NCBI GenBank assembly: GCA_023701245.1
Contig: JAMPXK010000006.1
Coordinates: 3,152 to 67,151, forward strand
DNA from: Elusimicrobiales bacterium
Lineage (GTDB): Bacteria > Elusimicrobiota > Elusimicrobia > Elusimicrobiales > UBA9959
DNA: 64,000 nucleotides
Reading direction: 5' to 3'
Part shown: in pieces, positions 5,218 through 22,064 of the stretch
How positions within the stretch are numbered: position 1 is the first letter of the stretch
Layout: every line of letters begins with the position of its first letter
Program-made: the position numbers and the translations under genes
The notes under the pieces: model-generated
Databases searched by the model: none
Told to the model about the DNA's origin: nothing
Seen by the model: the letters and a program-made list of their open reading frames with translations, nothing else

Positions 5218-6318
5218 ATGGCGAAGATCCTGCATACGGCCGACCTGCATATAACGGACGGCGAAGAAAAGAACTACTGCTACGGCGTGCTCGACGAGAT
5301 AATAGCCCTGGCCGCCGCGGAGCGGGCGGACGCGCTGGTGCTGGCCGGGGACCTCTTCGATTCTTTCGGGGATTTCGAGGCGCTGCGCAAGGAAGTCTGC
5401 CGCAAGTTCGAGCCGCTGGCCGCCACCGGCTGCCGCGTTATCTATATCCCCGGCAACCACGAAGCCCGCGGGTCCCAGGCGGACCTGTCCGCCTACAACC
5501 TGGACCCGGTCCTGTTCTGCGCCGCGCGGCCATTTTCCCTGGTAGAGGCGGGCGACGCCGAATTCCTCTGCGTGCCGCACGCCGACAGTTACGACGGCTA
5601 CCGGGACTGGAAAGTGCCCCCCAAACAAAGCGGCCTTTGCCGCGTCGCCGTGGTGCACGCCCTCAATTCCTCCATCTACTCCGGGCCGGAGGAAGAAACG
5701 GATTCCAGGACCGGCGTGATGGACGAGGATATCTTCGCGCGCTTCGGCGTGGATTACGCCGCTTTCGGGCACGTGCATTCCGGGCGGCAGCAGACCCTGG
5801 GCGGGGTAGTGGCCTGTTACCCGGGTTCCCCCCGCGTCTGGCGGGCCCACCCGCGTGAAGCCGGTCAGAAATCCGTGTGCCTGGTGGAAACCTCCGGTGC
5901 CGGAGTTTCCGTGCGCGTCCTCCCTCTCAAGGCCGCCGGGGAGTACCGGGAGTATTCTCTGCCGCTGGACCTGGCCGGCGCCCTGGCGCCCGCCGCCGTA
6001 GAAAAGCTGCTGGCCGCGGCCGGCGCGTTGGACCTGGTGGCCGTGTCCCTTACCGGCGTGGTGGAGGACGAGAACGCGGCCAAGGCCTCGGCTGAAAAGC
6101 TGCGGGAGGGCCTGGCCGGCAGATGCCGCCTGGCCCGCGTCACGCTGGACACTGTTGTGGCCGCAGCGCTCTCTTCCAACGCCCTGGCCCGGGCCTTCCT
6201 GGCCGAGATGGACAAGCTGGAGCCGGAGCAGGCTGACGCGGCGGGCTACCGCCGCTGGCTGCTGGCGCGGCAGTACGGGCTGGAAGAACTGGCCGCCCGC
6301 GCCGGGGAGGCCGCGTGA
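5218..6318 (+). CDS. Calcineurin-like metallophosphoesterase, SbcD/Mre11-like (YhaO/SbcF-like)
   Basis: Motifs HTADLH, AGDLFD, GNHE and GHVH in the canonical order of Mre11/SbcD phosphoesterases. Overlaps the downstream ATPase gene by 4 nt. Confidence 0.75.
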   Translation: MAKILHTADLHITDGEEKNYCYGVLDEIIALAAAERADALVLAGDLFDSFGDFEALRKEVCRKFEPLAATGCRVIYIPGNHEARGSQADLSAYNLDPVLFCAARPFSLVEAGDAEFLCVPHADSYDGYRDWKVPPKQSGLCRVAVVHALNSSIYSGPEEETDSRTGVMDEDIFARFGVDYAAFGHVHSGRQQTLGGVVACYPGSPRVWRAHPREAGQKSVCLVETSGAGVSVRVLPLKAAGEYREYSLPLDLAGALAPAAVEKLLAAAGALDLVAVSLTGVVEDENAAKASAEKLREGLAGRCRLARVTLDTVVAAALSSNALARAFLAEMDKLEPEQADAAGYRRWLLARQYGLEELAARAGEAA

Positions 6319-8630
6319 TAAAGCGCCTCGAACTGGAAGATTTCGGCAAGTTCCGCAAAACCTCCCTGGTCTTCGGGCCTTTCACGCTGGTGACCGGCCC
6401 CAACGAGGCAGGCAAGACCACCGTTTTCGACGCGCTCTTCGACGCGCTTTGCGCCGGGTCCAAGCACGAAGGGCGGCCGCTCTGGAAGAACATGGCCGCC
6501 CGTTACGGGGCCATCCGCCGGTCCTCCGTCGTCTGGGAGGACGGTTTCGCTCCGCTGCAATTCGGCGACAACGAGTTCCTTGAGATCTTCGCTATCCGCG
6601 GCGGGGAACTTTCCGTAAAGCACCCCGAGAATAAAGGGGCGTCCTCCTGGGCGGAAGCGGCGGAGAACGCGCTGCTTAATTCCGGGCTCAACCCGGCCCG
6701 GCTGGCCGCCGGTCTCAGGGACAAGGCGGAAAGCGCGCGCAAAGGTTCCATCCAGGCCAGGCTGCACCGTTTGAAAGAGGCCATAACGGACAAGGGGCCC
6801 ATGATAGCGGCGCTCCGGTCGGAGCGCGACGCCGTGCTGGCCGGAGCCCAAACCGCCGCCGGGCTCGCGGCCGAGCGGGAGCGCCGCGCCGCCGCCCTGG
6901 AATTGAAAAATTCCGAACTGGCGCAGTTGGGCGCTAAGGTGGAAGAACTCTCCTCCGCGGCCCGCCTGGCCGCCGCCATAGAGGGCATAAATACGCTGCG
7001 GGACCTGAAGGAAGCCAGGGAGGAGGCGGCCGCCCTGGCGGCCTACGCTTCCAGCGAGCTGCCGGCCTACCGGGCCTTGAAACATACCCAGTCCGAAATG
7101 GAGAAGGCAGAGGCTTCCGCGGCCGCGGCCCTGGCCGAAAAACGCTCCGCGCTCGACGCGGCGCAGAAGGCCGCCGCCGAACTTTCCGCTAAAGCCGGCC
7201 AGCTGCAGCCTCGCGGCGAAATGGCCCTGGTCCTGGCCGACAAACTGGCGGCTTTCGCGGCCGAGCCCGGCAAAGTCACCCGCGTGCTGAATACCCGGCT
7301 CCGTTTCGGCCTCTGGGCGGGCGGCCTGGCGCTTGCGGCGCTGGTGGCGTACTCGGGCGCCGGTGCCGTGGCCTACGCGGCCGCGGCCGCTATCCTGGGC
7401 GCGGCCGGCTGGGCCGGGTTCAAACTCGCTTTTACCCAGACCATGGTTCCCCGCGGTCCGGGTGAGGAAGCCGCTTTCCTGGCCGGCGTGGCCGCCACCT
7501 GGTCCACGGTCTGCGAGGCCCCCCTCCCTAAGCAGGGCGTGGAAGACGCCCGCAACTACCTGGCCCGGGCCAGGGCGGACCAGGAAGCCGCGGCCGAGGC
7601 CGCCGAGGCCAAGGTTTCCGAAGTGGAATTCCTGATAGCTTCGGCCAGTTCGGCGGAGGCCGACCTGGAGGACCGGGCGCGCAGGGCCCGCAAGGCGGCC
7701 GCCGAGGCCGACAAGTGGCTGAAGGCCCGCGCCTGCGCGACCGAGGACGAATACCAGGCGAAGCTGGCCGAGTATAAAGCCCGCGCGGCCCGCTGCGCCG
7801 ATATGGAACAGCGCCTGGCGGTGTTCCTGCGCCGCAACAATTGCTCCGCCGAGAAAGAGCTGAAGGATAAACTGCATACCGAGAAAGAATCCATAGAGCG
7901 GCGCGGGATCGGTCCCGAACAGGCGAACGGGCCCGAACTGGAACGCCTCAAGCACGCGCAGGCCCTGCTGGCGCAGGAAGTCAGGGAACTGGAAGCGGCG
8001 CTCAACAAGGTCGCTTCCGAACTTGAGACGGCCAAGGCCGTTTCCGGGGTGCGCCTCGGCGGCCTGCCGGAAAGAATAAACCTGGCCGAGACGGAACTGG
8101 AAGCGGAGAAGGCGGAACTGGCGGAACTGGAACTGCAGGCGCAGGCCTGCCTGCTCGCCGCCGGGGTTTTCGACCGCCTTGGCGAGAGCTCGCTGCTGGC
8201 TTTCGAGGAACTCGGCAAGGAAGTTTCCTCCGTGCTGCAGGCGGTGCTGCCGGCGGCAAGCGCTGAATTCAGGGTTTTTGAAGCGGCGGGAGCGGCGGTT
8301 ACGGACGCCACCGGCCTGCGCCGGCCCGTGCGGAACCTTTCTTCGGGCACGCGCGACCTTTTTATGCTGGCCGCGCGCCTGGCCATAGCCAGGCGCTCAC
8401 GCCTGGGCCAGGCCGGCCCCGCGCCGGCGCTGCTGCTGCTGGACGAACCTTTTTATACGCTGGACCAGGCGCGGACGCGCCTGGCACTGCTGCTGCTGGC
8501 CGCCTTCCACAAGAACACCGGCTGGCAGATCATAATCCTTACCAAGGACCCTGGCGTCGCCGCCGAAGCCGCCCGCCTGGACGGGGTCAAGGCGACGGAA
8601 GTGGCCCTCGAACCTCCCAAGCCGCTCTAA
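6315..8630 (+). CDS. SMC/Rad50-like AAA ATPase with membrane-spanning apex (YhaN/SbcE-like)
   Basis: Walker A GPNEAGKTT, signature LSSGTRD, Walker B LLLLDEP, and long Ala/Glu-rich coiled coils. Two hydrophobic helices sit mid-protein (LWAGGLALAALVAY...AAGWAGFKLAF) where Rad50 has its hook. Confidence 0.75.
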   Translation: MIKRLELEDFGKFRKTSLVFGPFTLVTGPNEAGKTTVFDALFDALCAGSKHEGRPLWKNMAARYGAIRRSSVVWEDGFAPLQFGDNEFLEIFAIRGGELSVKHPENKGASSWAEAAENALLNSGLNPARLAAGLRDKAESARKGSIQARLHRLKEAITDKGPMIAALRSERDAVLAGAQTAAGLAAERERRAAALELKNSELAQLGAKVEELSSAARLAAAIEGINTLRDLKEAREEAAALAAYASSELPAYRALKHTQSEMEKAEASAAAALAEKRSALDAAQKAAAELSAKAGQLQPRGEMALVLADKLAAFAAEPGKVTRVLNTRLRFGLWAGGLALAALVAYSGAGAVAYAAAAAILGAAGWAGFKLAFTQTMVPRGPGEEAAFLAGVAATWSTVCEAPLPKQGVEDARNYLARARADQEAAAEAAEAKVSEVEFLIASASSAEADLEDRARRARKAAAEADKWLKARACATEDEYQAKLAEYKARAARCADMEQRLAVFLRRNNCSAEKELKDKLHTEKESIERRGIGPEQANGPELERLKHAQALLAQEVRELEAALNKVASELETAKAVSGVRLGGLPERINLAETELEAEKAELAELELQAQACLLAAGVFDRLGESSLLAFEELGKEVSSVLQAVLPAASAEFRVFEAAGAAVTDATGLRRPVRNLSSGTRDLFMLAARLAIARRSRLGQAGPAPALLLLDEPFYTLDQARTRLALLLLAAFHKNTGWQIIILTKDPGVAAEAARLDGVKATEVALEPPKPL

Positions 8631-9877
8631 ACCGCCGCCCGCCGGGCCAGCCGGTAGGCGGCCAGGGCCTCCGGGAACGGCGACAAGACCCGCTCCAGCA
8701 CTCCCTTGCATTCCGAGATCGCGGTGCCGTAATTGGTTATGGGGATCCCGGCCGCCGCGGCCCGGCCCATGCGGTTGAGTATCTCCGCGCGGTTGAGCAT
8801 GCAGCCGCCGCACTGGATGGCCAGCTTGTAATCCCCCAGTCCGCCCGGCAGGTCGTGCCCGGCGAAAGTGTCTATCTTCAACTCCCCCCCGGCGGTTTCC
8901 TTAAGCCAGCGCGGCAGCTTTACTCGGCCGATGTCGTCCTCTATGGCATGGTGGCTGCAGGCTTCCAGGACGGCCACCCGGTCTCCGGGCCGCAGGCCGC
9001 GTATGGCGGCGGCCCCGGCGGCGTAGGCGGACAGGTCCCCTTTAAAACGGGCGAACAGGATGGAAAAAGTGGTGCAGGGCACGCCGGGCGGCGTGTGCTT
9101 GACCATGAAGTCCACCACCTGGGAATCGCAGACCACCAGCGCCGGCGGCTCTTTGAGGGCGTCCAGGGCCCGGAGGTATTCGTGCTCGCGGCAGACCAGC
9201 GGCAGGGCGCCGTGGTCCAGCAGGTCGCGCATGGCCTGGACCTGCGGCAATATTATGCGGCCCTTGGGGGCTTCTTTGTCTATGGGGATGATGAACACCG
9301 CGGTCTGGCCGGGTTTTACCAGGTCTCCCAGTATGACGGCCGGGGCGCCGGCCGGCGGCGCGCCGAGGCGCAGCAGGCGTTCTTTCACGGCGGCCACGGC
9401 GGCCTCACGGCGGGTCTTATCCACGGCGGAGCAGAGGATGGGGGCTATGCCGCGGCCGGCCAGGGCGGCGGAGAGTTCCGGGGCGGGCGCGGCGATATCG
9501 GTCTTGTTGACCAGGACGATAACGGGAATGCGCTTTTCGGCGGCGGCCGCCAGGATCTCCTCTTCGCAGTCGCCCCAGCCGGCGGGTTCGGCTACCAGCA
9601 GGGCCACGTCGGCGCGGTCGAAGATGCGGCGGGCGCGTTCTTTGCGGAGTTCGCCCAGGCGGCTGTTGTCGTCGAGGCCGGCGGTGTCGAGGAAGACCAC
9701 GGGACCGACGGGCAGGAGTTCCATGCTCTTCTCCACCACGTCGGTGGTGGTGCCGGGGACCGGCGAGGTAATGGCTACGTCCTGGCCGGCCAGCATATTG
9801 AGCACGCTGGACTTGCCGACGTTGGTGCGGCCGAAGATGGCGATCTGGAGTCTCATCGATTTAGGCGTGCTGTTCAT
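8627..9877 (-). CDS. hydF: [FeFe] hydrogenase maturase GTPase HydF
   Basis: G1 GRTNVGKSS, G3 DTAG, NKTD. C-terminal EACSHH...QCGGC cluster motif. Start moved to ATG 9877 (MNSTPKS, GGAAAGGA SD); the longer ORF reads through repeat copy B. Confidence 0.88.
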   Translation of the reverse strand: MNSTPKSMRLQIAIFGRTNVGKSSVLNMLAGQDVAITSPVPGTTTDVVEKSMELLPVGPVVFLDTAGLDDNSRLGELRKERARRIFDRADVALLVAEPAGWGDCEEEILAAAAEKRIPVIVLVNKTDIAAPAPELSAALAGRGIAPILCSAVDKTRREAAVAAVKERLLRLGAPPAGAPAVILGDLVKPGQTAVFIIPIDKEAPKGRIILPQVQAMRDLLDHGALPLVCREHEYLRALDALKEPPALVVCDSQVVDFMVKHTPPGVPCTTFSILFARFKGDLSAYAAGAAAIRGLRPGDRVAVLEACSHHAIEDDIGRVKLPRWLKETAGGELKIDTFAGHDLPGGLGDYKLAIQCGGCMLNRAEILNRMGRAAAAGIPITNYGTAISECKGVLERVLSPFPEALAAYRLARRAAV

Positions 9878-9895
9878 AGTAGTCCTTTCCTCGGG

Positions 9896-10023
9896 TCCGG
9901 CGGGGGTATGGGGTCTGAAGGCCCTCTCGGAGGCCGAGGCTTGCGTAAGCGACGAGGCCGAGTGAGGAGCGGCGCGAACGGTGTTCGCGACCGCGTGCCT
10001 GAGGACCCCATACCCCCGCCGGA
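9896..10023. repeat. Type-1 nested-hairpin intergenic element, copy B
   Basis: Perfect 20-bp arms (9896-9915 tccggcgggggtatggggtc / 10004-10023) around the conserved core. Lies between the hydE stop and the hydF start. Confidence 0.9.
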
Positions 10024-10029
10024 ACCCCT

Positions 10030-11022
10030 TTATGCCCGCTTCAAACTGTGGCCGAAACCTTCGGCGCGCTGCCGGCCCAGGGAGGCCAGCATGGCGTCCA
10101 CGCAGCCGGCGCACTGCTCCGGCTGTTCTCCGGTGCAGATCTTGCCGGGGTACAGGCTGTAGTCGGCGCGGTTCTCCATGGGGCTGATGTTGGGCATCAG
10201 CACGTTGGCGCCGCAGCCCAGGGCCTTCTGCCTCCCCCTGGGGTCCAGGGTGCCCATGGCGGTGGTGGCCGGGATATGGGTGTTCTTGGTGACGATGCGG
10301 GTCAGCGCCACCATGCGCAGGGCGGCGTCGAGCGTGCCGCAGTCGGCCCCGGCCATGGGGGTTTCGGGGCTGGCGATGAACGGGCCTATGCCCACCATGT
10401 CCAGGTCCAGCTTCTTGAAGAGGAGGATGTCGTCGGCCATGCTTTCCAGGCTCTGGCCGGGCAGGCCGGCCATTACGCCGGACCCTACCTGGAACCCGGC
10501 ATCCTTGAGGCGCGCCAGACAGGCGAAACGCCTGTCGTAATCCGAGTCCGGCTTGAGCATGCTGAAAAGGCGCCGGTCGGAGGTTTCGAAGCGCAGCAGG
10601 AAACGGTCGGCCCCGGCGGCGCGCAGCAGCCTGTACTCTTCGGCGGAGTACTCCCCTACGGAAAGGGTGATGGCCAGGCCGGTCTCGGTCTTTACTTTTT
10701 CCACTACGGCGGCCAGCTCCCTGGGCCCGTAATGGGGGTCTTCGCCGGACTGCATCACCACGGTTTGGTACTTCAGGCGGACGGCGGTGCGGGCGCAGTC
10801 CAGTATCTGCGCCGGGCTCAGGCGGTAGCGGCGCACTTTGGCGTTGCCGGCCCTTATGCCGCAGTAGTAGCAGCGGCGGCGGCAGTAGTTGGAGAACTCT
10901 ATGAGGCCGCGCAGGTGTACGCCGTCGCCTACCTGCTCGCGGCGCACCTTGTCCGCCAGGGCATAGAGATCCGCCGGATCGCTATCCGGGTTGAGGGCGG
11001 CGATGATCTCATTTTTGTTCAT
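10030..11022 (-). CDS. hydE: [FeFe] hydrogenase maturase HydE (radical SAM)
   Basis: 330-aa ORF. Radical-SAM CRRRCYYCGI (CX3CX2C), BioB-like fold signature, position between hydG and hydF. Confidence 0.88.
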   Translation of the reverse strand: MNKNEIIAALNPDSDPADLYALADKVRREQVGDGVHLRGLIEFSNYCRRRCYYCGIRAGNAKVRRYRLSPAQILDCARTAVRLKYQTVVMQSGEDPHYGPRELAAVVEKVKTETGLAITLSVGEYSAEEYRLLRAAGADRFLLRFETSDRRLFSMLKPDSDYDRRFACLARLKDAGFQVGSGVMAGLPGQSLESMADDILLFKKLDLDMVGIGPFIASPETPMAGADCGTLDAALRMVALTRIVTKNTHIPATTAMGTLDPRGRQKALGCGANVLMPNISPMENRADYSLYPGKICTGEQPEQCAGCVDAMLASLGRQRAEGFGHSLKRA

Positions 11023-11039
11023 ATTTGGCCCGGCCCGGG

Positions 11040-11067
11040 CCCCCCTTCCGCAAAGGGTTCGCGGGGG
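11040..11067. repeat. Partial type-2 element (shares 26 of 27 aligned nt with the 3' part of the 16386-16479 element)
   Basis: cccccc-ttccgcaaagggt-t-cgcggggg here versus ccccccc-ttccgcaaagggt-g-cgcgggg at about 16439-16466. Lies in the 70-nt hydG-hydE gap. Confidence 0.7.
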
Positions 11068-11092
11068 AGCGCCACTGACAGCCCGCTGTTAT

Positions 11093-12571
11093 TCAGAAGC
11101 ATAGGTCCCGCTCGCCGCCTTCTATCCTTTTGTAGTAGGTTTCCAAAAGCTTCAGGGTCTCCGGAGGGAAATGCGCTCCGCGGTCGCGGATCTCGTTGAT
11201 CTCGCGGCGGATCAGCGCTTCGCCTTTGGCCCTGGTGGCTTCGGAGGCGAAGTCGTCGAGCCATTCGCGGTAGGTGAGCACGGCGTTGAGCTTGCAGAAG
11301 CGGCTTTCATGCCCGCTCTTGAGCAGTTTCATGATGTGGTCGCCGGTGCGGCCGCAGCGGTAGCCGGAGGCGCAGAAGGAGGTGATGTGGCCCAGGTCGG
11401 CCAGCTCGCCTATCACCTCGTCGAGGGAGCGGGTGTCGCCCAGGATGAACTGCTGTTTCTCGGCTTCCTGCGCGCCGGCGCGCTCGGAGTAGGCGCCTAT
11501 GCCTATGCGGGTGCTGGCGTCGCGCTGGGTGCACATGCCTATGACCTCGCGGATGGTCTCCGGGCGCTCGCGGGCGGTGACTATCATGCCGGCGTAGGGG
11601 ACGGCCAGGCGCAGTACGGCCACCAGCTTCTTGAAATCGGCGTCGGAAACGTTGCGGAGGCTGGCCTCGGGCAGGCTGGTGCCGTCGGCGTTCTCCAGGC
11701 GCGGGAAAGAGATGGTATGCGGGCCGACGCCGAAGCGCGCTTCCAGTTCGCGCGCGTGCGCTACCAGGCCCAGCACTTCGAATTTCCAGTCGGGGTTGAG
11801 GCCGAAGAGGGCGCCCAGGGCCACGTCGTCTATGCCGGCGGCGAAGGCCCGGTGCATGACGTAGAGGCGCCAGCGGTAGTCGGCTTTGGGGGTGCCGCCG
11901 GGATGAAGTCTGGCGTAGAGCTCCCGGTCGTAGGTTTCCTGGAAGACCTGGTAGGTGCCGAGGCCGGCGGCCTTGAGCAGCTTCAGGTCCTCGACGTTCA
12001 TGGGGGCGGCGTTGACGTTGACGCGGCGTATCTGGCCGAAGCCCTTGCGGGTGGGCACTTTGACGGCGTAGATGGTCTTCATGGCCTCGGCTATGTACTG
12101 CGCGCCGGTGGCGGGATGTTCGCCGGTGACGAAGATGAGGCGCTTATGGCCTATGCGCCCGGCGAGGGCTTCGGCCTCGGACCGGATCTCTTCCATGGAG
12201 AGTTTGCGGCGCACGGCCCCGGCGTTGCCGGTGCGGAAGCCGCAGTAGAGGCAGTTGTTGACGCAGAAGTTGGAGGCGTAGAGCGGGGCGAAGGTGATGA
12301 CGCGGTTGTCGTAGACCTTGCGCTTGACATCGCGGGCGGCCTGGTAGATCTCTTCGAGCAGGCCGGGGTCGGTGACGGCCAGGAGCGCCGCGGCGTCTTC
12401 GGGCGGGAGGGCCTCGGAGACGGCGAGCGAACGGGCGAGGATCTCGCGGACGCGGTCGGCCGAAGGGGCCGGGGCGGCGAGCGCCGCTTTCAGCGCTTTA
12501 TCGTCTATGAAGTCTTTGCCGTCTTTGAGGTAGTCTGCGTAGGTGTCTGCGTTAACGGTCACGGTTTGCAT
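11093..12571 (-). CDS. hydG: [FeFe] hydrogenase maturase HydG (radical SAM tyrosine lyase)
   Basis: Radical-SAM CVNNCLYCGF, ThiH-like body, C-terminal Cys triad. Start moved to ATG 12571 (MQTVTVN, GGAGA SD); the longer ORF reads into repeat element F. Confidence 0.88.
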   Translation of the reverse strand: MQTVTVNADTYADYLKDGKDFIDDKALKAALAAPAPSADRVREILARSLAVSEALPPEDAAALLAVTDPGLLEEIYQAARDVKRKVYDNRVITFAPLYASNFCVNNCLYCGFRTGNAGAVRRKLSMEEIRSEAEALAGRIGHKRLIFVTGEHPATGAQYIAEAMKTIYAVKVPTRKGFGQIRRVNVNAAPMNVEDLKLLKAAGLGTYQVFQETYDRELYARLHPGGTPKADYRWRLYVMHRAFAAGIDDVALGALFGLNPDWKFEVLGLVAHARELEARFGVGPHTISFPRLENADGTSLPEASLRNVSDADFKKLVAVLRLAVPYAGMIVTARERPETIREVIGMCTQRDASTRIGIGAYSERAGAQEAEKQQFILGDTRSLDEVIGELADLGHITSFCASGYRCGRTGDHIMKLLKSGHESRFCKLNAVLTYREWLDDFASEATRAKGEALIRREINEIRDRGAHFPPETLKLLETYYKRIEGGERDLCF

Positions 12572-12597
12572 AAGGTCTCCTTGGTTCGGGGCCGCCA

Positions 12598-12698
12598 GGG
12601 TGTTACCCTGGGCCCCACACCCGGGGAACCGTTGCGCGGTTCCCCCGTCCCTTACGGGACGGGTCCCCCTCCCCAAGTGGGGCGTGCGGGTAACACCC
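12598..12698. repeat. Type-2 nested-hairpin intergenic element (copy F)
   Basis: Outer stems GGGTGTTACCC/GGGTAACACCC and GCCCCAC/GTGGGGC enclose hairpins GGGGAACC[gttgcgc]GGTTCCCC and CGTCCC[ttac]GGGACG. Confidence 0.85.
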
Positions 12699-12720
12699 CG
12701 CCGTCCCCTCCAAACAGCGC

Positions 12721-13896
12721 CTAGTGCACGGCTTCGGTTGCGACCGGCACCGGCGCGTCCTTGAGCGTCAGCTCGAAGGAGGTCCCTTCACCGTACTTGG
12801 ACTGCACTTTTACGTCGCCGCCGTAAAGCTTTACCACTTTCTTGAGTATGGACAGGCCGAGGCCGCTGCCGTCGATGTTGCGGGTGTGCTCGTTCTTCAT
12901 GCGCACGAATTCCCCGAACAGTTTGGCGAGCTCCTGCTCCGTCATGCCTATGCCGGTGTCCGAGCAGCGTATGGCTACGGCGCCGTCCTGGCGGGCCAGT
13001 TCGAGGACCGCCCGGCCGCCTTCGCGGTTGTACTTGACGGCGTTGGTCAGCAGGTTGGACAGGACCATGTCCACTTCGCCCGGGTCGGCCGTCATCAGCA
13101 GCTGCGCCGGGGCTTTGAGCTCCACCGTGACTTTTTTGGCTTCGGCCAGGGCGGCGATGTTCTCCAGTATGAGCCCGGCGGTCTTTACCAGGTCCACCTG
13201 TTCTATGGCGCGCCGTTTTTTGCCGGATTCCAGGCGGGTAAGGTCCAGCAGGTCCATGACGAGTTTTCTCATGCCGCCTATGCGGGTGACGCTGCGGTCC
13301 ACCATGGCGTCGTAGGCGGCCAGCTCGGGGCCTTTCAGGCGCTCTTTCATGAGGTGCATGTAGCCTTCCACCGCGGCCAGCGGGCTCTTGAGCTCGTGCG
13401 CGAGGACCGAGATGAATTCGAAACGCACCTGGCGCTTCTCGTCCTCCAGCTTTTTGGCCTTGCGCTGCAGGTAGACGCTGCGCGCGGCCTTGGAGATGGT
13501 GGCGCGGAGTTCTTCCGGAGTAAAGGGCTTGGCCAGGAAGTCGAAAGCCCCGCGCTTGGTGGCGGTGACCGCCACTTCCAGCGAGGCGAAGGCCGTTATC
13601 ATGATGGTCAGGAAATCCCCCGCCCCCGGGGCGGCTGCCAGCACGTCTATGCCGGTCATGTCCGGCAGTTTATAGTCCAGGAGCAGGATGTCCGGGCTCT
13701 TGGCTTTCAGCGCGGCCAGGGCTTCGTCGCCGGTGGAGGCGCTGCGCACGGCGAAGGTGACGGTCTCGCTGAAGTCGGGCAGGGGCACGCTGAAGCCTTC
13801 CAGGGAGCGTTCCGCCCCCGCGCGCATGCCGGCCTCGTCGTCGACGATGAGTACGTCCAGCTGGTGGACGGGCAGGGGGTCAGGCATGACGCTCAC
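12721..13896 (-). CDS. Hybrid response-regulator receiver / histidine kinase (REC-HisKA-HATPase_c)
   Basis: N-terminal REC (VLIVDDE...LLLDYKLPDMTG), H-box SVLAHELKSPL, and N/G boxes (LTNAVKYN, DTGIGM, GSGLGLS). No transmembrane or DNA-binding region. Confidence 0.85.
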   Translation of the reverse strand: MSVMPDPLPVHQLDVLIVDDEAGMRAGAERSLEGFSVPLPDFSETVTFAVRSASTGDEALAALKAKSPDILLLDYKLPDMTGIDVLAAAPGAGDFLTIMITAFASLEVAVTATKRGAFDFLAKPFTPEELRATISKAARSVYLQRKAKKLEDEKRQVRFEFISVLAHELKSPLAAVEGYMHLMKERLKGPELAAYDAMVDRSVTRIGGMRKLVMDLLDLTRLESGKKRRAIEQVDLVKTAGLILENIAALAEAKKVTVELKAPAQLLMTADPGEVDMVLSNLLTNAVKYNREGGRAVLELARQDGAVAIRCSDTGIGMTEQELAKLFGEFVRMKNEHTRNIDGSGLGLSILKKVVKLYGGDVKVQSKYGEGTSFELTLKDAPVPVATEAVH

Positions 13897-14290
13897 CCGC
13901 GCCCATAAGGCGCTTAAGTTCGCTCTTGAGCTGCTCGAAGCGCAGTTCCTTGTGGATTATGGCGTCGGCCTTTATCCAGGTCTTGGGGTCATGGGCCTTG
14001 TCGAAGTAGAAGCCGGTCTCCTTGGTGACCGAGGTCACGATGACCACCGGGATACTGGGGTCCATCTTCTTTATCTTGTGGCTCAGCACGAAGCCGGAAT
14101 CGGGGTTCTCCATCATCAGGTCCAGGACGGCGGCCTTGAAATTGCCGGGCCGGATGAGAGGCTCGGCCTCTTTCTGGGTGGAGGCGCTGACCACTTCGTA
14201 GTCTTCGCTTTCGAGGTAGATCTTCATCTGTTCCATCATATCCGGGTCGTCTTCCACTACCAGGATCTTTATTTTGTTCTTGTCGGTCAT
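13880..14290 (-). CDS. Single-domain response regulator (REC only)
   Basis: 136-aa ORF with ILVVEDD and AAVLDLMM receiver motifs and no output domain. Overlaps the downstream REC-HK gene by 17 nt. Confidence 0.85.
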   Translation of the reverse strand: MTDKNKIKILVVEDDPDMMEQMKIYLESEDYEVVSASTQKEAEPLIRPGNFKAAVLDLMMENPDSGFVLSHKIKKMDPSIPVVIVTSVTKETGFYFDKAHDPKTWIKADAIIHKELRFEQLKSELKRLMGAGERHA

Positions 14291-14314
14291 AGTATTCTCC
14301 TGTCGCCGCTTAGA

Positions 14315-16348
14315 TCATTTGCCCGCGGTCTCCGCTTTCATCTTGATCGCCCCGGCGTCGCGCGCCACGCGGGGCAGTTTTACCGTAAAGGTGGTGCCCG
14401 TCGGGCCCTTGGCCGGGTCGGAGTTGCTCTCTACCGCGATGCTGCCGCGGTGCACTTTGATGATGCCGTAAGAGACCGCCAGCCCCAGGCCGGTCCCCTT
14501 GCCTATCTGCTTGGTGGTGAAGAAAGGCTCGAAGATCTTCTTGGCATTCTCCGGCTTTATGCCGCAGCCGGTGTCCGAAACGCTGAAGCAGACGCTTTCG
14601 CGCTCGGGGAAGGTGCGGATGGTGAGCGCGCCGGCGCCGCCCATGGCTTCCAGGGCGTTGGTCACCAGGTTGGTAAGCACCTGGATTATCTGGTCGGGGT
14701 CCATCTCGGCCTGCAGGTCCTCGCCGGAGCGGTCCACGGTCAGCTTCAGCGTGGCCGGGACCGACGCCGTCTTGAAATAGTTGTCGATGAGGCGTACCAG
14801 GCTGGTCTGGCGGAAGAACGGCTTGTTCTTGCGGGCGAAGTTGAGCAGCCCGCCCACGATCTTCTTGCAACGGTCGGCCTGCTCGGTTATCATCTTGGCG
14901 TCGGCGAAGACGCGGGTGTCCTTCTGGCACTGTTCGGCCAGCAGGTGGGCGTAGAGCAGCACCACGCCGAGCGGGTTGTTGAGCTCATGGGCCACTCCGG
15001 CGGCCAGCTGGCCCATGCTGGCGAGCTTTTCCGACTGCATCAGGGCCTGCTTGGTCTTGGCCAGCTGGTTGTAGGAGACCGTCAGTTCGTCGGCGGTGGT
15101 CTTGAGCCGGTCTATGGTGTAGGGGAGGCACATTTCGCTTTCGGCTATGCCGCGGATGATGGCCACGGCGTGCTCCACGCAGGTGGGGTAGCCGCAGGCG
15201 CCGCAGTTCAGTTCGTCCTCCGGCCTGGTCTTGCCCATCTTGGCCAGGACGGCCTTGAGCTCCTCGCCGGCCGGCAGTTTCATGCGCCGGTCCTCGGCTT
15301 CGAAGGAGGCGCCGTAGTTCAGGCCGCGGAAGCGGCGCACGCTCTCTTCCCAGTCGTTGAGGCGGATGCTGAAATAGCTTTTGCGGGCGTAGCGGCGCAG
15401 GGCGGCCTCGCGCGCGTGCTTGGAGGACTTTACGCTGATGCCGGGGCCCATGATGCAGCCGTTGCAGCAGAGCAGGTCTATGAAATCGGCGTCGATGTCT
15501 CCGTGCTCCATGTTCTTGAGCACTTCCGGGAAGTTCTCCAGCCCTTCCGAAGAGAGGAAGCGGCCGCTCAGCAGGTCCTCTTCGAGTTCGGCGGAGTTGA
15601 GCAGGCCGCCGCCCATGGGGTAGAGCACGCCCTTGGCGGGATGCGGCGGGTCGAACTGGGCGTCCAGGGCGCTGTTGCGGTCCACGCCGGCGTCCTTGAG
15701 GATGGTGCGCAGCTCCACGAAGGTTATGGATTCCGCTATGTCGGCCAGGTTGCGGGCGGTCTCTTCCTTCTTGGCCACGCACGGCCCGATGAAGACCACT
15801 TTTACTTCGGGACCGTACATGTCGTGTATGACCCGGGCCTCGGCCACCATGGGGGAGACTATGGGCGCGAGGCTGCCCACCAGGGCCGGGTGGTATTTTT
15901 CCACGAAGGAGACCACTGCGGGGCAGGCGGTGCTGATGAATTTTTTGCCGGGGTTCTCGTTGATGAGCTTGCGGTACTGCAGGGAGACCATGTCCGCGCC
16001 GAAGGCCACTTCGCAGACATGTTTGAAGCCGAGGGCCTTTAACATGCCGGCGAACCGCAGGGGGTCTATCCCGCCGAATTCAACGGGGAAACTTGGGGCC
16101 AGGGCGGCGGCGACGGGCGCGCCGCTCTTGAGGAGGGCTTTTACGGCGCGGATGGAGTCCAGGGTCTCTTTGGCGCCGCGGCTGCACATGAGCACGCAGT
16201 TGGCGCAGCCTATGCAGCGCTCCTTTATGACCTCGGCCTGGCCGCCGGAGATGCGGATGGCCTTGGCGGGGCAGCCGCGCACGCAGGTATAGCACGCCTT
16301 GCAGCGTTCTTTGATGGTCCTTACTAGTGGCTCGCTATCGGGTGTCAT
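14315..16348 (-). CDS. Sensory [FeFe]-hydrogenase-like protein fused to a histidine kinase
   Basis: Contains a 2x[4Fe-4S] ferredoxin motif. The H-cluster-domain motifs are altered: STACP, GPCVAKKEE, LLCCNGCIMGPG. A CX2CX4CX16C motif (CGACGYPTC...C) follows, then H-box VAHELNNPL and HATPase_c. Start set to ATG 16348 (MTPDSEP). Confidence 0.85.
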   Translation of the reverse strand: MTPDSEPLVRTIKERCKACYTCVRGCPAKAIRISGGQAEVIKERCIGCANCVLMCSRGAKETLDSIRAVKALLKSGAPVAAALAPSFPVEFGGIDPLRFAGMLKALGFKHVCEVAFGADMVSLQYRKLINENPGKKFISTACPAVVSFVEKYHPALVGSLAPIVSPMVAEARVIHDMYGPEVKVVFIGPCVAKKEETARNLADIAESITFVELRTILKDAGVDRNSALDAQFDPPHPAKGVLYPMGGGLLNSAELEEDLLSGRFLSSEGLENFPEVLKNMEHGDIDADFIDLLCCNGCIMGPGISVKSSKHAREAALRRYARKSYFSIRLNDWEESVRRFRGLNYGASFEAEDRRMKLPAGEELKAVLAKMGKTRPEDELNCGACGYPTCVEHAVAIIRGIAESEMCLPYTIDRLKTTADELTVSYNQLAKTKQALMQSEKLASMGQLAAGVAHELNNPLGVVLLYAHLLAEQCQKDTRVFADAKMITEQADRCKKIVGGLLNFARKNKPFFRQTSLVRLIDNYFKTASVPATLKLTVDRSGEDLQAEMDPDQIIQVLTNLVTNALEAMGGAGALTIRTFPERESVCFSVSDTGCGIKPENAKKIFEPFFTTKQIGKGTGLGLAVSYGIIKVHRGSIAVESNSDPAKGPTGTTFTVKLPRVARDAGAIKMKAETAGK

Positions 16349-16385
16349 AATCGTTGTCTGACTTAAGTCCTGAGCTATTAGTGGC

Positions 16386-16479
16386 GCCCGGGATATTGCC
16401 CCACGCACCCTGGAAGATGGAAACCCTTGCGTCGGTTTCCCCCCCTTCCGCAAAGGGTGCGCGGGGCAATATCCCGGGC
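16386..16479. repeat. Type-2 nested-hairpin intergenic element (copy D)
   Basis: 25-bp arms with one mismatch (16386-16410 / 16455-16479) enclose GGAAACC[cttgcgtc]GGTTTCC and CCCTT[ccgca]AAGGG hairpins. Lies between the hydA stop and the sensor-kinase start. Confidence 0.88.
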
Positions 16480-16492
16480 ACCCTTCTGCTGT

Positions 16493-18217
16493 CTACGTTA
16501 GGTCCGCCGCCTTGCGCCTGGCGTACTTAGTGTGCAGGAGGTGGTGGCTCTTCTCGCCGAGGGGCTTGCCGAGGAAGTCCTTGTAGAGGGCCTGCACGGC
16601 CTTGTTGGCGTGCGAGGTGCGGATCTTCTCGGAGGCGTCGATATTGTACAGGGCGCGCATGCGCTCGGCTACGGCGGCCTTGTTGCGGGCGAAGGGCTGG
16701 CCGCCGCCGTTGATGCAGCCGCCGGGGCAGGTCATGATCTCTATGAAGTGGAGGTCCTTCCTGCCGTTCTTGATCTCTTCCAGCAGTTTGCGGGCGTTGC
16801 CCAGGCCGCTGACGGCCGCTACCCCGGCTTCCAGGGCGCCGATCTTGAGGCGGGCTTCCTTGATGCCGTTCTGGCCGCGCACGGCTTCCACCTTGAGGGT
16901 GCCCAGTTCCTTGCCGGTGAGCAGGTAATGGGCGGTGCGCAGGGCGGCTTCCATGACGCCGCCGGAGGCGCCGAAGATCTTGCCGGCGGTGCTGCGGTCC
17001 CCGAAGGGCATATCCGGCTCTTCGGGCTGCAGGGTCTTAAGGTCTATGCCGTAAATGCGCAGCAGCTGGGCCAGTTCGCGCGTGGTCACCACCGCGTCGA
17101 TGTCGGGGGTGCCGTCGCGGCCCATCTCGGGGCGGGTCACTTCGAATTTCTTGGCGGTGCAGGGCATGACCGAGACGCTGTACATCCTGGCCGGGTCGAG
17201 CCCCTGCTTTTTGGCGTAGTAGGTCTTGATCATGGCTCCCAGCATCTGCTGCGGGCTCTTGCAGGTGGAGAGGTTGGGCAGCAGTTCGGGATAGAAGGTC
17301 TCCACGAACTTTATCCACCCGGGCGAGCAGGAGGTGAACATGGGCAGCGGGCCGCCGGTCTTTATGCGGTGCGCCAGTTCGCTGGCCTCCTCCATGATGG
17401 TCAGGTCGGCCGCGAAGGAGGTGTCGAAGACGGCCTTGAAGCCCATCTTGCGGAAAGCCGCGGTCATGACGCCGTTGACGTCGGTGCCGGCGGGCAGGCC
17501 GAACTCCTCGGCGAGGGACACGGAGATGGACGGGGCGTGCTGCACCACCACGTGCAGTTTCTTGTCGGAGAGGGCTTCCATGACCGCCTGGATGTCGCTC
17601 TTCTCCATCAGGGCGCCGGTGGGGCAGACGTTGATGCACTGCCCGCAGTTGACGCAGGAGGAGACGTTGAGGCTGGAGTCGAAAGCGCAGCCGATGGAGG
17701 TGTCCGAGCCGCGCTTTACGAAGTCTATGCAGGAGACGCCCTGCACCTCCTCGCAGACGCGCACGCACTTGCCGCAGAGAATGCACTTGTCGGGGTCGCG
17801 GGAGATGGAGGGGCTGGAAATATCCAGGGGCTTCTTCTTCTTGGCCACGGGGAAGCGGCGGCCGGTCACGCCGTAGTCGCGGCTGAGGCGGTTAAGCTCG
17901 CAGGTGGGCTGCTTGGCGCAGTAGAGGCAGTCGTCGGGATGAGAACCCAGCAGCAGTTCCACCACGGTCTTGCGGGCGTTTATGACGCGCGGGCTGTTGG
18001 TGAGGATCTTCATCCCCTCGGCCGCCGGGAAAGAGCAGCTGGGCAGGAGGTTGCCCTGGCCTTCCGCTTCTACCACGCAGATGCGGCAGGCGCCGGAGGG
18101 CAGCATGCCTTCCATGTGGCAGAGGGTGGGCACATGCACGCCTTCGCGGCGCAGCACGGTGAGCAGGGTTTCCCCCGCCTGGGCTTCTACGGTCTTTCCG
18201 TTCACGGTGAGTTTCAT
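16493..18217 (-). CDS. hydA: [FeFe] hydrogenase catalytic subunit (HydA/HndD type, multi-cluster N-terminus)
   Basis: N-terminal 2Fe-2S, HX3CX2CX5C and 2x[4Fe-4S] motifs. H-cluster motifs MPCTAKKFE and EIMTCPGGCINGGGQP are canonical, but motif 1 reads TSCSPGW. Confidence 0.88.
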   Translation of the reverse strand: MKLTVNGKTVEAQAGETLLTVLRREGVHVPTLCHMEGMLPSGACRICVVEAEGQGNLLPSCSFPAAEGMKILTNSPRVINARKTVVELLLGSHPDDCLYCAKQPTCELNRLSRDYGVTGRRFPVAKKKKPLDISSPSISRDPDKCILCGKCVRVCEEVQGVSCIDFVKRGSDTSIGCAFDSSLNVSSCVNCGQCINVCPTGALMEKSDIQAVMEALSDKKLHVVVQHAPSISVSLAEEFGLPAGTDVNGVMTAAFRKMGFKAVFDTSFAADLTIMEEASELAHRIKTGGPLPMFTSCSPGWIKFVETFYPELLPNLSTCKSPQQMLGAMIKTYYAKKQGLDPARMYSVSVMPCTAKKFEVTRPEMGRDGTPDIDAVVTTRELAQLLRIYGIDLKTLQPEEPDMPFGDRSTAGKIFGASGGVMEAALRTAHYLLTGKELGTLKVEAVRGQNGIKEARLKIGALEAGVAAVSGLGNARKLLEEIKNGRKDLHFIEIMTCPGGCINGGGQPFARNKAAVAERMRALYNIDASEKIRTSHANKAVQALYKDFLGKPLGEKSHHLLHTKYARRKAADLT

Positions 18218-18227
18218 GGTGGTATCC

Positions 18228-20189
18228 TCAAGCGGCGCTGACGGCCTTGAATTTGCAGACGGTCCTGCAGGAACCGCAGGAAATGCACTTCTCGGCTATG
18301 ATGTAGTGGGGCACTTTGGGCTTGCCCACTATGGCCTGCGTGGGGCAGCCTTTCATGCAGAGCGTGCAGCCTTTGCACTTTTCCGCGTCTATGGAGAATT
18401 CCAGCATCTCGGTGCAGGCGCCGGCGGGGCACTTGCGCTCGAAGATGTGGGCTTCGTATTCGTCGCGGAACCAGCGCAGGGTGCTGAGCACCGGGTTGGG
18501 GGCGCTCTGCCCCAGGCCGCACAGGCTGGTCTCGCGGATGACCTGGCTCAAGTCCTCCAGGTTCATGATGCCTGAGAAGCGGGCCAGGGCGTCGGCGTCC
18601 TTTTCGCCGCGGCGGTGGCGGGTGATGGCTTTCAGGATCTCCAGCATGCGCAGCGTGCCTTCGCGGCAGGGAATGCACTTGCCGCAGCTCTCGCGCTTTA
18701 TGAAGTCCATGAAGTACTTGGCCACGTCCACCATGCAGGTTGTCTCGTCCATGACCACGAGGCCGCCGGACCCCATCATGGCGCCCACGGTCTTGAGGGA
18801 CTCGTAGTCCACCTGGATGGTCATGTGGCTCTGGGGGATGCAGCCGCCCGACGGGCCGCCTATCTGCACGGCCTTGAACCCCAGGCCGTTCTCTATGCCG
18901 CCGCCTATGTCGAAGACGATCTCTTTGAGCGTGGTGCCCATCGGGATCTCCACCAGACCGGTGCGGTTGACCTTGCCGGAGAGGGCGAAGACCTTGGTGC
19001 CTTTGGACCCCTTGGTGCCGATGGCGGCGAAGGCCGCCGGGCCCTGCGAAATTATCTCGGGGACATTGGCGAAGGTCTCCACGTTGTTGATGACGGTGGG
19101 CTTGCCGAACAGCCCCTTTACCGCCGGGTACGGCGGGCGCGGCTTGGGCATGCCCCGCCGGCCTTCTATGCTGTTCATCAGCGCGGTTTCCTCTCCGCAG
19201 ACGAAGGCGCCCGCGCCCATCTTTATGATGACGTCCAGGTCGAAGCCGCTGCCGTAGATGTTCTCTCCCAGCAGGCCGTAGGCCTTGGCGTCCGCTATGG
19301 CTTTTTTCAGGTTCTTGATGGCCAGCGGGTACTCCGCGCGGATATAGATGTACGCCTTGGAGGCGTGGATGGCGTAGGCGCCGATGGCGATGCCTTCCAG
19401 CACGCGGTGCGGGTCGCCCTCTATGACGGAGCGGTCCATGAAGGCGCCGGGGTCCCCCTCGTCGGCGTTGCAGATGATGTATTTCTGGTCGGCGTCGGAG
19501 GAAAGGGCTATCTTCCATTTCTTGCCGGTCGGGAAACCGCCGCCGCCGCGGCCGCGCAGGCCGCTGGCCTCTATCACGTCGCAGGCCTGGATCGGCGTCA
19601 TGGTGTGGATCACCTTCAGGAAAGCCCCGTAGCCGCCTCGGGCGATATGTTCCTGTATGGAGAGCGGGTCCACTATGCCCACGTGCTTGAGCACGAAGCG
19701 CAGCTGTTTGGCGAAAAAGGGATGGTCGCTGAGCAGCGGGACTTTGGGCCACTTCTTGCCCCCGTCCTCGAATTGGCCGAGCAGGTGCTCCTTGAGAGGG
19801 GCCCTGTCCTTGAAGACGGAATCCAGGAGGGCCGGGGTTATGTCGCCGGTGGCGGCCTGGAAGCCTACCCTCGCGTGGCCCGGCAGCTGTACGTCCAGCA
19901 GGGGCTCGGCGGCGCAGAGGCCGATGCAGCCCACCTCCAGGATATCAGCTTCCAGCTTGTTGTCCTTCAGGTATTTCCTGGCCGCTTCCAGGGTCTTTGC
20001 GGCGCCGGCGGCCAGGCCGCAGGTGCCGGCTCCCACGTAGATTATGGCGCGCTCGGCGCTCTCGCGGCGCAGAGCCGCGGCCTTTTGGGCGTAATCCTCC
20101 GAGCCGAAGGCGCGGGTGAGAAAAGCCTTGCGGGCGGAGGCCGGGATCCCGGCGAGATTGTTGTCTATTAAACCGTTATTTTGCGGCAT
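18228..20189 (-). CDS. hydB: NuoF-like flavoprotein subunit of bifurcating-type hydrogenase (HydB/HndC)
   Basis: 653 aa. GLRGRGGGGFPTGKKW (FMN/NADH site), SCGKCIPCREG (N3-type cluster), C-terminal 2x[4Fe-4S] (CKGCTLCMKGCP, CISCGSCRTVC), N-terminal thioredoxin-like Cys pattern. Confidence 0.88.
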   Translation of the reverse strand: MPQNNGLIDNNLAGIPASARKAFLTRAFGSEDYAQKAAALRRESAERAIIYVGAGTCGLAAGAAKTLEAARKYLKDNKLEADILEVGCIGLCAAEPLLDVQLPGHARVGFQAATGDITPALLDSVFKDRAPLKEHLLGQFEDGGKKWPKVPLLSDHPFFAKQLRFVLKHVGIVDPLSIQEHIARGGYGAFLKVIHTMTPIQACDVIEASGLRGRGGGGFPTGKKWKIALSSDADQKYIICNADEGDPGAFMDRSVIEGDPHRVLEGIAIGAYAIHASKAYIYIRAEYPLAIKNLKKAIADAKAYGLLGENIYGSGFDLDVIIKMGAGAFVCGEETALMNSIEGRRGMPKPRPPYPAVKGLFGKPTVINNVETFANVPEIISQGPAAFAAIGTKGSKGTKVFALSGKVNRTGLVEIPMGTTLKEIVFDIGGGIENGLGFKAVQIGGPSGGCIPQSHMTIQVDYESLKTVGAMMGSGGLVVMDETTCMVDVAKYFMDFIKRESCGKCIPCREGTLRMLEILKAITRHRRGEKDADALARFSGIMNLEDLSQVIRETSLCGLGQSAPNPVLSTLRWFRDEYEAHIFERKCPAGACTEMLEFSIDAEKCKGCTLCMKGCPTQAIVGKPKVPHYIIAEKCISCGSCRTVCKFKAVSAA

Positions 20190-20661
20190 TTGAGTTCTCC
20201 GTTTTCCTGATGTCGTCCACTAGTTTGCGGAGTTTGTCGGGGGTGATCTTGGCGTGGAACTCCCCGTTAAGGCTGATGACCGGGGCCAGGCCGCAGGCGC
20301 CTATGCAGGCCACCACTTCTATGCTGAAAAGCCCGTCGCGGGTGGTGTCCCCCGCTTTAATGCCCAGGACCTCTTCGCACATCTTGAGCACGGCCGCCGA
20401 GCCCTTTACGTGGCAGGCGGTGCCGCGGCAGATCATGATGTGGTACCTGCCCACCGGTTTGAACCTGAACTGGTTGTAGAACGTGGCCACCCCGTAAACC
20501 TTGCTGGCGGGGATATTGAGGTGTTTGGCCACCTTCAGCGCGGCGGGCTTGGAGATGTAGCCGTCCGCGGCCTGGACGTCCTGCAGGATCGGTATCAGCT
20601 TGTCCCTCTTGGCGAAGCTGTAGTTTTCCAGGACCTTGTCCACTTTGCTCGGGGCGCTCAT
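20176..20661 (-). CDS. hydC: NuoE-like [2Fe-2S] subunit (HydC/HndA)
   Basis: 161 aa. Thioredoxin-like ferredoxin pattern CRGTACH...ACIGACGLAP. Overlaps hydB by 14 nt. Confidence 0.88.
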   Translation of the reverse strand: MSAPSKVDKVLENYSFAKRDKLIPILQDVQAADGYISKPAALKVAKHLNIPASKVYGVATFYNQFRFKPVGRYHIMICRGTACHVKGSAAVLKMCEEVLGIKAGDTTRDGLFSIEVVACIGACGLAPVISLNGEFHAKITPDKLRKLVDDIRKTENSNAAK

Positions 20662-20665
20662 GGTG

Positions 20666-21298: not shown

Positions 21299-21306
21299 AT
21301 CGCTCC

Positions 21307-21723: not shown

Positions 21724-21752
21724 ACTTTCCTCCGGGTCTTAGCGTTTGAAGT

Positions 21753-21806: not shown

Positions 21807-21814
21807 ACAGAAAT

Positions 21815-22040: not shown

Positions 22041-22064
22041 TCTATTCTGGCGGTCTGGAGGGCG

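Follow-up and report, generated by a model that had tools for sequence, protein, structure and literature searches.

In Enterobacteria and Pseudomonas, repetitive extragenic palindromic (REP) sequences and bacterial interspersed mosaic elements (BIME) are mobilised by REP-associated tyrosine transposases (RAYT), which are Y1/HUH enzymes, and the Correia elements of Neisseria (CREE/NEMIS, for Correia repeat enclosed elements or Neisseria miniature insertion sequences) duplicate a TA target. REP sequences reportedly stabilise upstream mRNA segments, an effect that Newbury and colleagues are said to have described in 1987 for malE-malF, and the mycobacterial interspersed repetitive units (MIRU) were, according to what Supply and colleagues are said to have found in 1997, located in intercistronic operon spacers. 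Correia elements measure about 100-155 bp, have long inverted arms and are transcribed, and their duplex is bound or cut by RNase III (PMC2649163, PMC2229807). The enterobacterial repetitive intergenic consensus or intergenic repeat units (ERIC/IRU) of Yersinia operons are imperfect palindromes of about 127 bp placed between cistrons, with which they are co-transcribed, altering the stability of the flanking mRNA (De Gregorio et al., 2005, reviewed in PMC2229807). In this study, we report palindromic repeats in the intercistronic gaps of an [FeFe]-hydrogenase (hyd) operon of an Elusimicrobiales bacterium, contained in a window of 64,000 nucleotides (the whole stretch of DNA analysed, contig JAMPXK010000006.1) with a guanine plus cytosine (G+C) content of 63%.

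The operon occupies positions 8627-21723 of the minus strand, and its open reading frames (ORFs) and Pfam domains give the order REC, Rex, hydC, hydB, hydA, hydS (HK), REC, REC-HK, hydG, hydE and hydF, REC being a receiver and HK a histidine kinase. It has exactly four gaps longer than 30 nt, at 16349-16492 (144 nt), 12572-12720 (149 nt), 11023-11092 (70 nt) and 9878-10029 (152 nt), with the same coordinates and lengths that an earlier reading of the letters alone (the sequence-only reading) had given. The gene calls also agree with its claim that no other junction exceeds 24 nt (24, 10, 8 and 4 nt, or overlapping). We consider it probable that the four gaps hold two related, Elusimicrobia-specific families of dispersed palindromic repeats, which entered an ancestrally compact hyd operon as insertions resembling REP sequences or miniature inverted-repeat transposable elements (MITE). 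The copies found in the window are the following, with scores from R1 and R2, the covariance models of type 1 and type 2:

16371-16494, minus strand: element D, type 2, subtype 2a, in the hydA/hydS gap (R2 78.7 bits, E 2e-17)
12578-12717, minus strand: element F, type 2, subtype 2b, in the REC-HK/hydG gap (R2 113 bits)
11027-11073, minus strand: element E, truncated 5' half of type 2a, in the hydG/hydE gap
9892-10027, minus strand: element B, type 1 three-way junction, in the hydE/hydF gap (R1 128 bits, E 6e-27)
3369-3504, minus strand: element A, type 1, outside the cluster, in a divergent intergenic region (R1 118.6 bits)
53786-53944, minus strand: element C, type 1, outside the cluster, between co-directional minus-strand genes (R1 108 bits)

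That each long gap is filled by a hairpin element is true of D, F and B, while E is a repeat remnant with no hairpin. Ranked by length, the local inverted repeats of the whole 64 kb are headed by A, B, C and D, and F occupies rank 12. With the exception of E, the elements have fold energies of -83 to -122 kcal/mol, with z scores of -6 to -13.5 versus shuffled sequences. The outer arms of D (16383-16411 and 16454-16482) form 29 bp, whose two mismatches read as G.U on the sense strand; its core is TTGCGGAAGGGGGGG, followed by the hairpin GGAAACC-GACGCAA-GGGTTTCC, and its fold reaches -86 kcal/mol (z -13.5). F has arms at 12588-12608 and 12688-12708 and the inner hairpins CCGTCCC-GTAA-GGGACGG and GGAACCG-CGCAA-CGGTTCC, and a native Shine-Dalgarno (SD) sequence, AAGGAG, is placed 3' of it. 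Element E forms no long hairpin (fold z -1.1) and is missed by the R2 model; it agrees with the 5' arm and core of D at 26 of 27 bases across CCCCGCG(A/C)ACCCTTTGCGGAAGGGGGG. The arms of B lie at 9893-9922 and 9997-10026, and the element follows the stop codon of hydE and precedes GAGG, the native SD of hydF. A belongs to a subfamily with GGTTCGCGGGT...ACCCGCTCC ends, and C contains an optional extra mini-hairpin of 23 nt, ACTGCGGTGTCGCTTCGCTCCAC. This mini-hairpin, in the same form or in variants with GGCCTTCGGCC, occurs in a minority of type-1 copies, and its place within the element is not always the same (also in the related loci L005, L023, L039, L045, L050, L064, L079, L013, L068 and L033; labels of this form designate the loci compared with the window), which suggests a modular build of type 1.

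Both families have similar outer arms (..CGGGGTATGGG.. and ..CGGGGTGTTCCCC..), and across them the elements are 105-160 nt long and enclose two or three inner hairpins. In type 1 (A, B and C; about 135 nt) an outer stem of about 30 bp, which differs between copies, encloses a conserved three-way junction (..GGCACGGGGTCG-stem-ACC-stem-CGCCCCTCCTCAC..GCTTACGCAAGC..GTGAGGG..). Type 2 (D, F and E; 105-150 nt; subtypes 2a and 2b) has a similar outer stem and an interior made up of the G-rich linker TTG(C/G)GGA(A/G)GGGGG, a variable hairpin and a conserved one, GGAACCG-CGCAA-CGGTTCC. The pairing is strongly covarying: 41 of the 46 type-1 pairs and 23 of the 31 type-2 pairs vary on both sides, and 89 and 88% of the cells, respectively, are paired, versus 42-48 and 40-57% with slid partners. 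Conserved terminal inverted repeats (TIR) were not found, the arms being complementary within a copy but different between copies, with compensatory changes. Neither was an invariant 5' tetranucleotide present among the elements, which show only subfamily tails (CCGCGAGATGnnnAGTC, GGTTCGC).

The mismatches differ between the two strands. On the modelled strand of type 1 there were 59 G.U versus 159 A.C and 268 C.U versus 19 G.A; because of this asymmetry the complementary G-rich strand folds better, and in each of the 47 copies compared it was the more stable one, with a difference of about 10 kcal/mol. In type 2 the modelled strand, which is the sense strand in the hyd operon, carried 79 G.U versus 40 A.C and 181 G.A versus 32 C.U and was more stable in 18 of 19 copies. 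The asymmetry was considered as an RNA-strand test for function at the mRNA level and was set aside for type 1, as it points to a strand that is antisense to the flanking genes more often than sense (36 vs. 20); therefore, it gives no support to such a function.

The gene order of the hyd operon is kept in the relatives compared. Gap lengths (nt) are given in the order hydA/hydS, REC-HK/hydG, hydG/hydE and hydE/hydF, with the element in brackets:

Window: 144 (2a), 149 (2b), 70 (2a remnant), 152 (type 1)
L080: 194 (2a), 153 (2b), 154 (2b), 230 (2b/2a recombinant with nested insert)
L083: 198 (2a with insert), 157 (2b), 7, 77 (remnant)
L084: 71 (none), 175 (2a), 7, 156 (2b)
L085: 121 (type-1 fragment), 197 (2b/2a recombinant), 6, 166 (2a)
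L081: 66 (none), 18, 6, 20; element-free, with a REC-HK 86% identical to that of the window
L082 and L086: 37 and 23+33, respectively; then 19, 268 (type-1-like, in reverse orientation), overlap
L065: REC-HK/hydG 2b, hydG/hydE 169 (type 1), hydE/hydF overlap
L207 (distant relative): 8, 45, 53, overlap; compact

L080 carries type 2 at all four junctions, including a complete type-2 element where the window has only the remnant E. The REC-HK/hydG junction also holds copies in L080, L083 and L065, and hydE/hydF is a 20-nt gap or an overlap in L081, L082, L086 and L065. The 66-nt hydA/hydS spacer of L081 had no match to either model. From this comparison, the compact hyd operon is the ancestral state. 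Counted over the orthologous operons, there were at least 11 independent gains at hyd junctions; therefore, the elements are insertions and not conserved architecture. They sit between the stop codon and the native SD of the next gene, as seen when tag-CCGATCGT-GAGGTCCAGACT-atg of L081 is set beside taa-A[B]GAGGAAAGGACTACT-atg of the window, and filled and empty orthologous junctions revealed no target-site duplication. The same junction in different species holds differing types, orientations or remnants. Local copying is indicated by the near-identical arms of the L080 copies and by the match of E to D. In addition, L080:13947-14176 and L085:11171-11367 share an insert of about 48 nt (TGGGCTATGCCCGTGCCGCATCAGGCGCTATGCGCAACAGGCGGCCAA) in the CGCAA loop of the conserved type-2 hairpin; it lies in two different junctions, and both hosts are 2b-5'/2a-3' recombinants with arms that no longer pair.

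In this regard, the proposal that the elements partition the module stands as to placement, at the boundaries of hydCBA, the sensor genes, hydG, hydE and hydF, but not as a designed or conserved partition: L081 and L207 are element-free, types and orientations vary, and copies are spread genome-wide in both orientations. The absence of an obvious SD before hydS and hydE, which had been noted for genes downstream of the elements, is real. However, it is a native trait, the same sequence (..CAGGCAACGATatg before hydS and tgaGGCCCTatg before hydE) being present in the operons of element-free relatives.

No element was found in the REC/Rex, Rex/hydC, hydC/hydB, hydB/hydA, hydS/REC and REC/REC-HK junctions of any operon compared, among which hydB/hydA measures 10-14 nt and hydS/REC 13-25 nt. 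The restriction to boundaries fits purifying selection against insertions that would break the translational coupling of hydCBA or of the sensor genes, and it would also fit positive selection for uncoupling. The second possibility leads to operon punctuation, in which the hairpins would have been recruited to set differing mRNA half-lives or translation of hydCBA, the sensor/regulator genes and each maturase, and by analogy would act like REP stabilisers, the ERIC elements of Yersinia operons or RNase III-cut Correia elements. The gains fall in four junction classes and never in REC/Rex, hydB/hydA or hydS/REC (native gaps 3-25 nt), a restriction whose chance, weighted by native gap length, is about 0.025 by our own estimate. 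Moreover, the window and seven hyd loci gave 16 model matches in about 105 kb of operon versus 4 in about 107 kb of flank, a density about four times higher although inflated by shared ancestry, and in the window about 4 of 10 hyd junctions carry an element versus about 1 of 28 other co-directional junctions, according to rough gene calls. The type-2 copies of the hyd operon are oriented 15 sense versus 0 antisense, both stem mismatches of D are G.U on the mRNA strand, and effects of this kind have been documented in ERIC as well as Correia elements (PMC2229807, PMC2649163). Nevertheless, L081 and L207 do without elements at all four junctions and other relatives are empty at one to three; type and orientation are interchangeable at a junction (reversed in L082 and L086); the remnants E and the hydE/hydF copy of L083 persist though they are no longer hairpins; and genome-wide the type-2 copies of co-directional gaps are 25 sense versus 16 antisense. 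The uniform sense orientation within the operon is explained by local copying. Selected punctuation, whether or not it worked as those analogues do, thus appears to us rather unlikely. Somewhat more doubtful still is that types 1 and 2 represent an undescribed class of structured repeats, with a multi-branched core that is conserved, arms that covary freely and folding that depends on the strand, which moves by an unrecognised enzyme and was repeatedly recruited at operon module boundaries, the gains then reflecting selection for post-transcriptional control below the operon level.

Dispersed insertion, the reading that we prefer, is also concerned with the distribution of the families outside the operon. 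The exact type-1 core pattern was found at 78 genome loci, 77 of them in 19 Elusimicrobia/Elusimicrobiales metagenome-assembled genomes; the remaining one was a lone match in Streptomyces, about 4 chance matches being expected for the pattern. R1 detected 116 type-1 copies in 788 kb and R2 gave 107 type-2 matches, while the exact type-2 core was present in at least 120 metagenome stretches from many different contigs. According to the gene calls of the loci studied, no copy lies inside any gene. The gene caller, based on G+C content at third codon positions, is crude, having failed to call Rex and, in some loci, hydS, and the following orientation counts are therefore approximate:

Type 1: co-directional sense 36, co-directional antisense 20, convergent 24, divergent 9
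Type 2, genome loci: co-directional sense 15, co-directional antisense 0, convergent 2, divergent 0
Type 2, metagenome sample: co-directional sense 25, co-directional antisense 16, convergent 17, divergent 6

Co-directional and convergent gaps are occupied far more often than divergent ones, and adjacent inverted pairs of elements are frequent. A strictly sense orientation of type 2, suggested by 15 of 15 genome copies, was discarded in view of the wider metagenome sample (25 vs. 16). The neighbours of the copies are unrelated to each other (pur, nifSU, with sites at nifS and nifU included, lptB, prmC-murA, groEL and hyd). At the pur locus, type 1 lies at purD/purM (L008:3241-3373) and type 2 at purM/purN (L008:4373-4516), with an orthologue in L037, and another type-2 copy separates prmC from murA (L004:6691-6820). 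One type-1 copy is found about 35 nt downstream of an apparent tRNA 3' end (L012:2496-2560, minus strand; …GGTTCAAATCC…CCA). In L073:6258-7512 two inverted type-1 copies surround an island of about 1 kb, which was examined as a possible transposase unit and rejected, the enclosed gene encoding a membrane protein with an Mrr-like restriction-endonuclease C-terminus.

These data also bear on whether the three-way junction could be the functional unit of a structured RNA family, either a free-standing small RNA or a cis-acting motif that binds a protein or ligand. All helices covary strongly, the junction nucleotides are conserved and the mismatches are strand-asymmetric, which speaks in favour of such a family. 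However, the copies lie in both orientations relative to transcription next to unrelated genes and are often nested, truncated or recombined, and type-1 G.U pairs make up about 1% of cells, a scarcity that functional RNAs do not usually show. Searched at the gathering thresholds of Rfam 15, neither the window nor 18 related loci gave any match; relaxing the limit to E<=1 brought up two, a generic miRNA hairpin on D (26 bits versus a threshold of 53), which was the sole one to fall on an element, and another within the hydS gene. We judge this possibility very improbable. A riboswitch or ribozyme was rejected given the absence of conserved boundary motifs and of covariance-model matches and the mutually unrelated neighbour genes. 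Integron attC sites have R''/R' core sites (RYYYAAC ... GTTRRRY) at their ends and form a cassette array beside an integrase; here, no GTTRRRY-like boundary was seen in the flanks and the neighbours are conserved operon genes, not cassettes, and this identity was likewise discarded. No description of an Elusimicrobia repeat was located in Rfam or in the searchable literature and, with respect to both sources, types 1 and 2 are two undescribed families of structured palindromic repeats.

Still less credible is that the elements are intrinsic terminators or attenuators dividing the cluster into separate transcription units. They are long G+C-rich hairpins directly behind stop codons, but no T-run follows D, F or B and a terminator scan of the operon gaps found no terminator-like site on the minus strand. 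The promoter scan of the gaps yielded no restart site except a 9/12 match at chance level overlapping D (16495-16468), with 3 sites found versus 2.1 expected. Furthermore, true operon ends in relatives have ordinary short hairpins with T-runs, located after hydF (L065 4008-4039 and L080 15404-15445). Given the lack of terminator tails and of convincing promoters, the elements should be co-transcribed with the operon.

With respect to mobility, the flanks of 98 type-1 copies showed no target-site duplication, conserved target or preferred dinucleotide. No protein family or transposase recurs beside the elements, an all-against-all BLAST of 317 flanking proteins having grouped nothing but housekeeping orthologues. 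Neither an IS200/IS605 copy with matching ends nor a conserved target of 4-5 nt 5' of the element was detected. A screen for the HUH...Y motif revealed three Y1_Tnp genes:

L206:11506-12504, minus strand: Y1_Tnp gene, RAYT- or IS200-like (PF01797 confirmed)
L031:2877-3770, minus strand: Y1_Tnp gene, RAYT- or IS200-like (PF01797 confirmed)
L011:7180-7998, minus strand: Y1_Tnp gene, RAYT-like (by motif only)

None of them is flanked by type 1 or type 2 in the approximately 1.6 Mb searched, beyond which other RAYT genes may exist. That of L206 is bracketed by inverted GGGGACG(C/T)TCATTCCTAATTCC short repeats and that of L031 has GGCGCTGTCCCCTATTTT downstream, neither of these repeats being type 1 or type 2. 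These genes and other short repeats look like classical REP/RAYT pairs that exist alongside types 1 and 2. L031 and L021 share another short repeat, AATAGGGACAGCGCC.

Taking the elements as insertions, a plausible course of events can be outlined. They would have entered the compact hyd operon on repeated occasions, each time behind a stop codon and ahead of the ribosome-binding site of the next gene, and local copying, nesting, recombination and truncation would have followed. Movement probably took place as folded single-stranded DNA, most likely by means of an HUH/Y1 (RAYT or IS200-like) enzyme or template switching; this route is favoured because the folding is strand-specific, duplications are lacking and the clade has Y1 enzymes, and it would explain both the strand-asymmetric mismatches and the missing duplications. 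Copies would persist only where the separation of adjacent cistrons is harmless. Once transcribed within the polycistronic mRNA, duplexes of 20-30 bp would break translational coupling, and they may serve as RNase III sites or as barriers to 3' exonucleases, leading to separate decay of hydCBA, the sensor genes and each maturase. An effect on the stability of the operon mRNA is plausible, with ERIC and Correia elements as the analogues.

Several points weigh against this reading. No transposase or recurrent neighbour family is tied to the elements, and the three Y1_Tnp genes are flanked by different repeats. Variable arms with a conserved core are the reverse of a typical TIR-type MITE, and covariation this strong could mean selection on RNA. 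The better-folding strand of type 1 is mostly antisense and type 2 is biased in the opposite direction; therefore, one simple strand rule fails for both. Finally, the avoidance of three short operon junctions could reflect positive selection at module boundaries.

The genes of the operon, identified as ORFs with Pfam domains, are the following:

21307-21723, minus strand: REC (first gene)
20666-21298, minus strand: Rex
20176-20661, minus strand: hydC
18228-20189, minus strand: hydB
16493-18217, minus strand: hydA
14315-16348, minus strand: hydS, HydS-like hydrogenase-domain histidine kinase
13880-14290, minus strand: REC (second)
12721-13896, minus strand: REC-HK (protein 100% identical to one from an Elusimicrobiales metagenome-assembled genome)
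11093-12571, minus strand: hydG
10030-11022, minus strand: hydE
8627-9877, minus strand: hydF
21843-21815, minus strand: predicted operon promoter TTGACA-17-TATACT, upstream of the first REC (11/12 matches)

A module of 13 genes had been proposed; counted from the predicted promoter there are 11, and any extension upstream must cross the promoter gap of 341 nt (21724-22064), which is free of elements. The promoter is the sole strong promoter-like site that the scan found within 8000-22500. The same hexamer pair was seen upstream of the L080 and L081 operons, while in L082 the second hexamer is TATAGT. This upstream region is conserved across species (window 21724-22064, L080:1757-2110, L081:1825-2252 and L082:2033-2279), and many GTAACG, CGTTAC and TTAACGTTAA repeats surround the promoter in it, which may be candidate operator sites for Rex or response regulators. 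In hydS, a sensory [FeFe]-hydrogenase-like domain is fused straight to HisKA/HATPase. The operon also encodes two stand-alone receivers, a REC-HK hybrid and Rex, an unusually rich regulatory set that is kept in all relatives examined. hydF and the convergent plus-strand gene (6315-8630) share a 3' overlap of 4 nt (8627-8630), which is terminator-free. Elsewhere in the window there are direct repeats of 298 nt (48921-49218 and 52595-52892) and 126 nt (49808-49933 and 53479-53604), 83-85% identical and with a spacing of 3.67 kb, within two minus-strand genes that are probably paralogues.

The repeats provide a simple explanation for the unusual spacing of the [FeFe]-hydrogenase, sensor and maturase operon, and with them two abundant repeat families are defined in a phylum that is for the most part uncultured. 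Annotators can mask the elements; without masking, predicted ORFs extended into both D and F. Whether an orthologous junction is filled or empty could also serve to mark a lineage, and the mixture of occupied and unoccupied junctions in closely related species offers a natural experiment on the uncoupling of structural, sensory and maturation genes.

Compared with known systems, the elements share with MIRUs the intercistronic location in operons, but MIRUs are direct tandem repeats of 46-100 bp with small ORFs overlapping stop and start codons, and they lack hairpins. Like ERIC, they are palindromic repeats inserted between cistrons, the effect on mRNA being here by analogy only; unlike ERIC, to which they bear no sequence relation, they are not conserved end to end but have arms that vary and covary, and the effect of ERIC depends on orientation and involves an RNase E site. 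They resemble Correia elements in size, in their long arms and in a presence that differs (among strains in Correia elements, among relatives here). However, Correia elements have conserved 26-bp TIRs and an integration host factor (IHF) site and can create promoters, while here there is no duplication, the arms are unconserved and no convincing promoter is predicted, the match on D being at chance level (9/12). With the palindrome-associated elements (PATEs) derived from IS200/IS605, whose mobility depends on single-strand hairpins as is proposed here, the elements share strand-specific structure and the lack of duplication; they differ in that neither an IS200/IS605 copy with corresponding ends nor a conserved 5' target of 4-5 nt was found. 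The comparison with REP/BIME, already drawn by the sequence-only reading, identified the right kind of repeat class. REPs are single hairpins of 20-40 nt with a conserved 5' tetranucleotide of the GTAG type, whereas these elements are multi-branched, of 105-160 nt, with variable arms and a conserved core, and the RAYT-like genes found here are flanked by other short repeats. Nevertheless, as in REP/BIME, there are many extragenic palindromes, located in co-directional and convergent gaps and in operon interiors, arranged in adjacent inverted pairs and in clusters of alternating orientation, with no target-site duplication, with strand-specific folding and with Y1_Tnp genes present in the clade.

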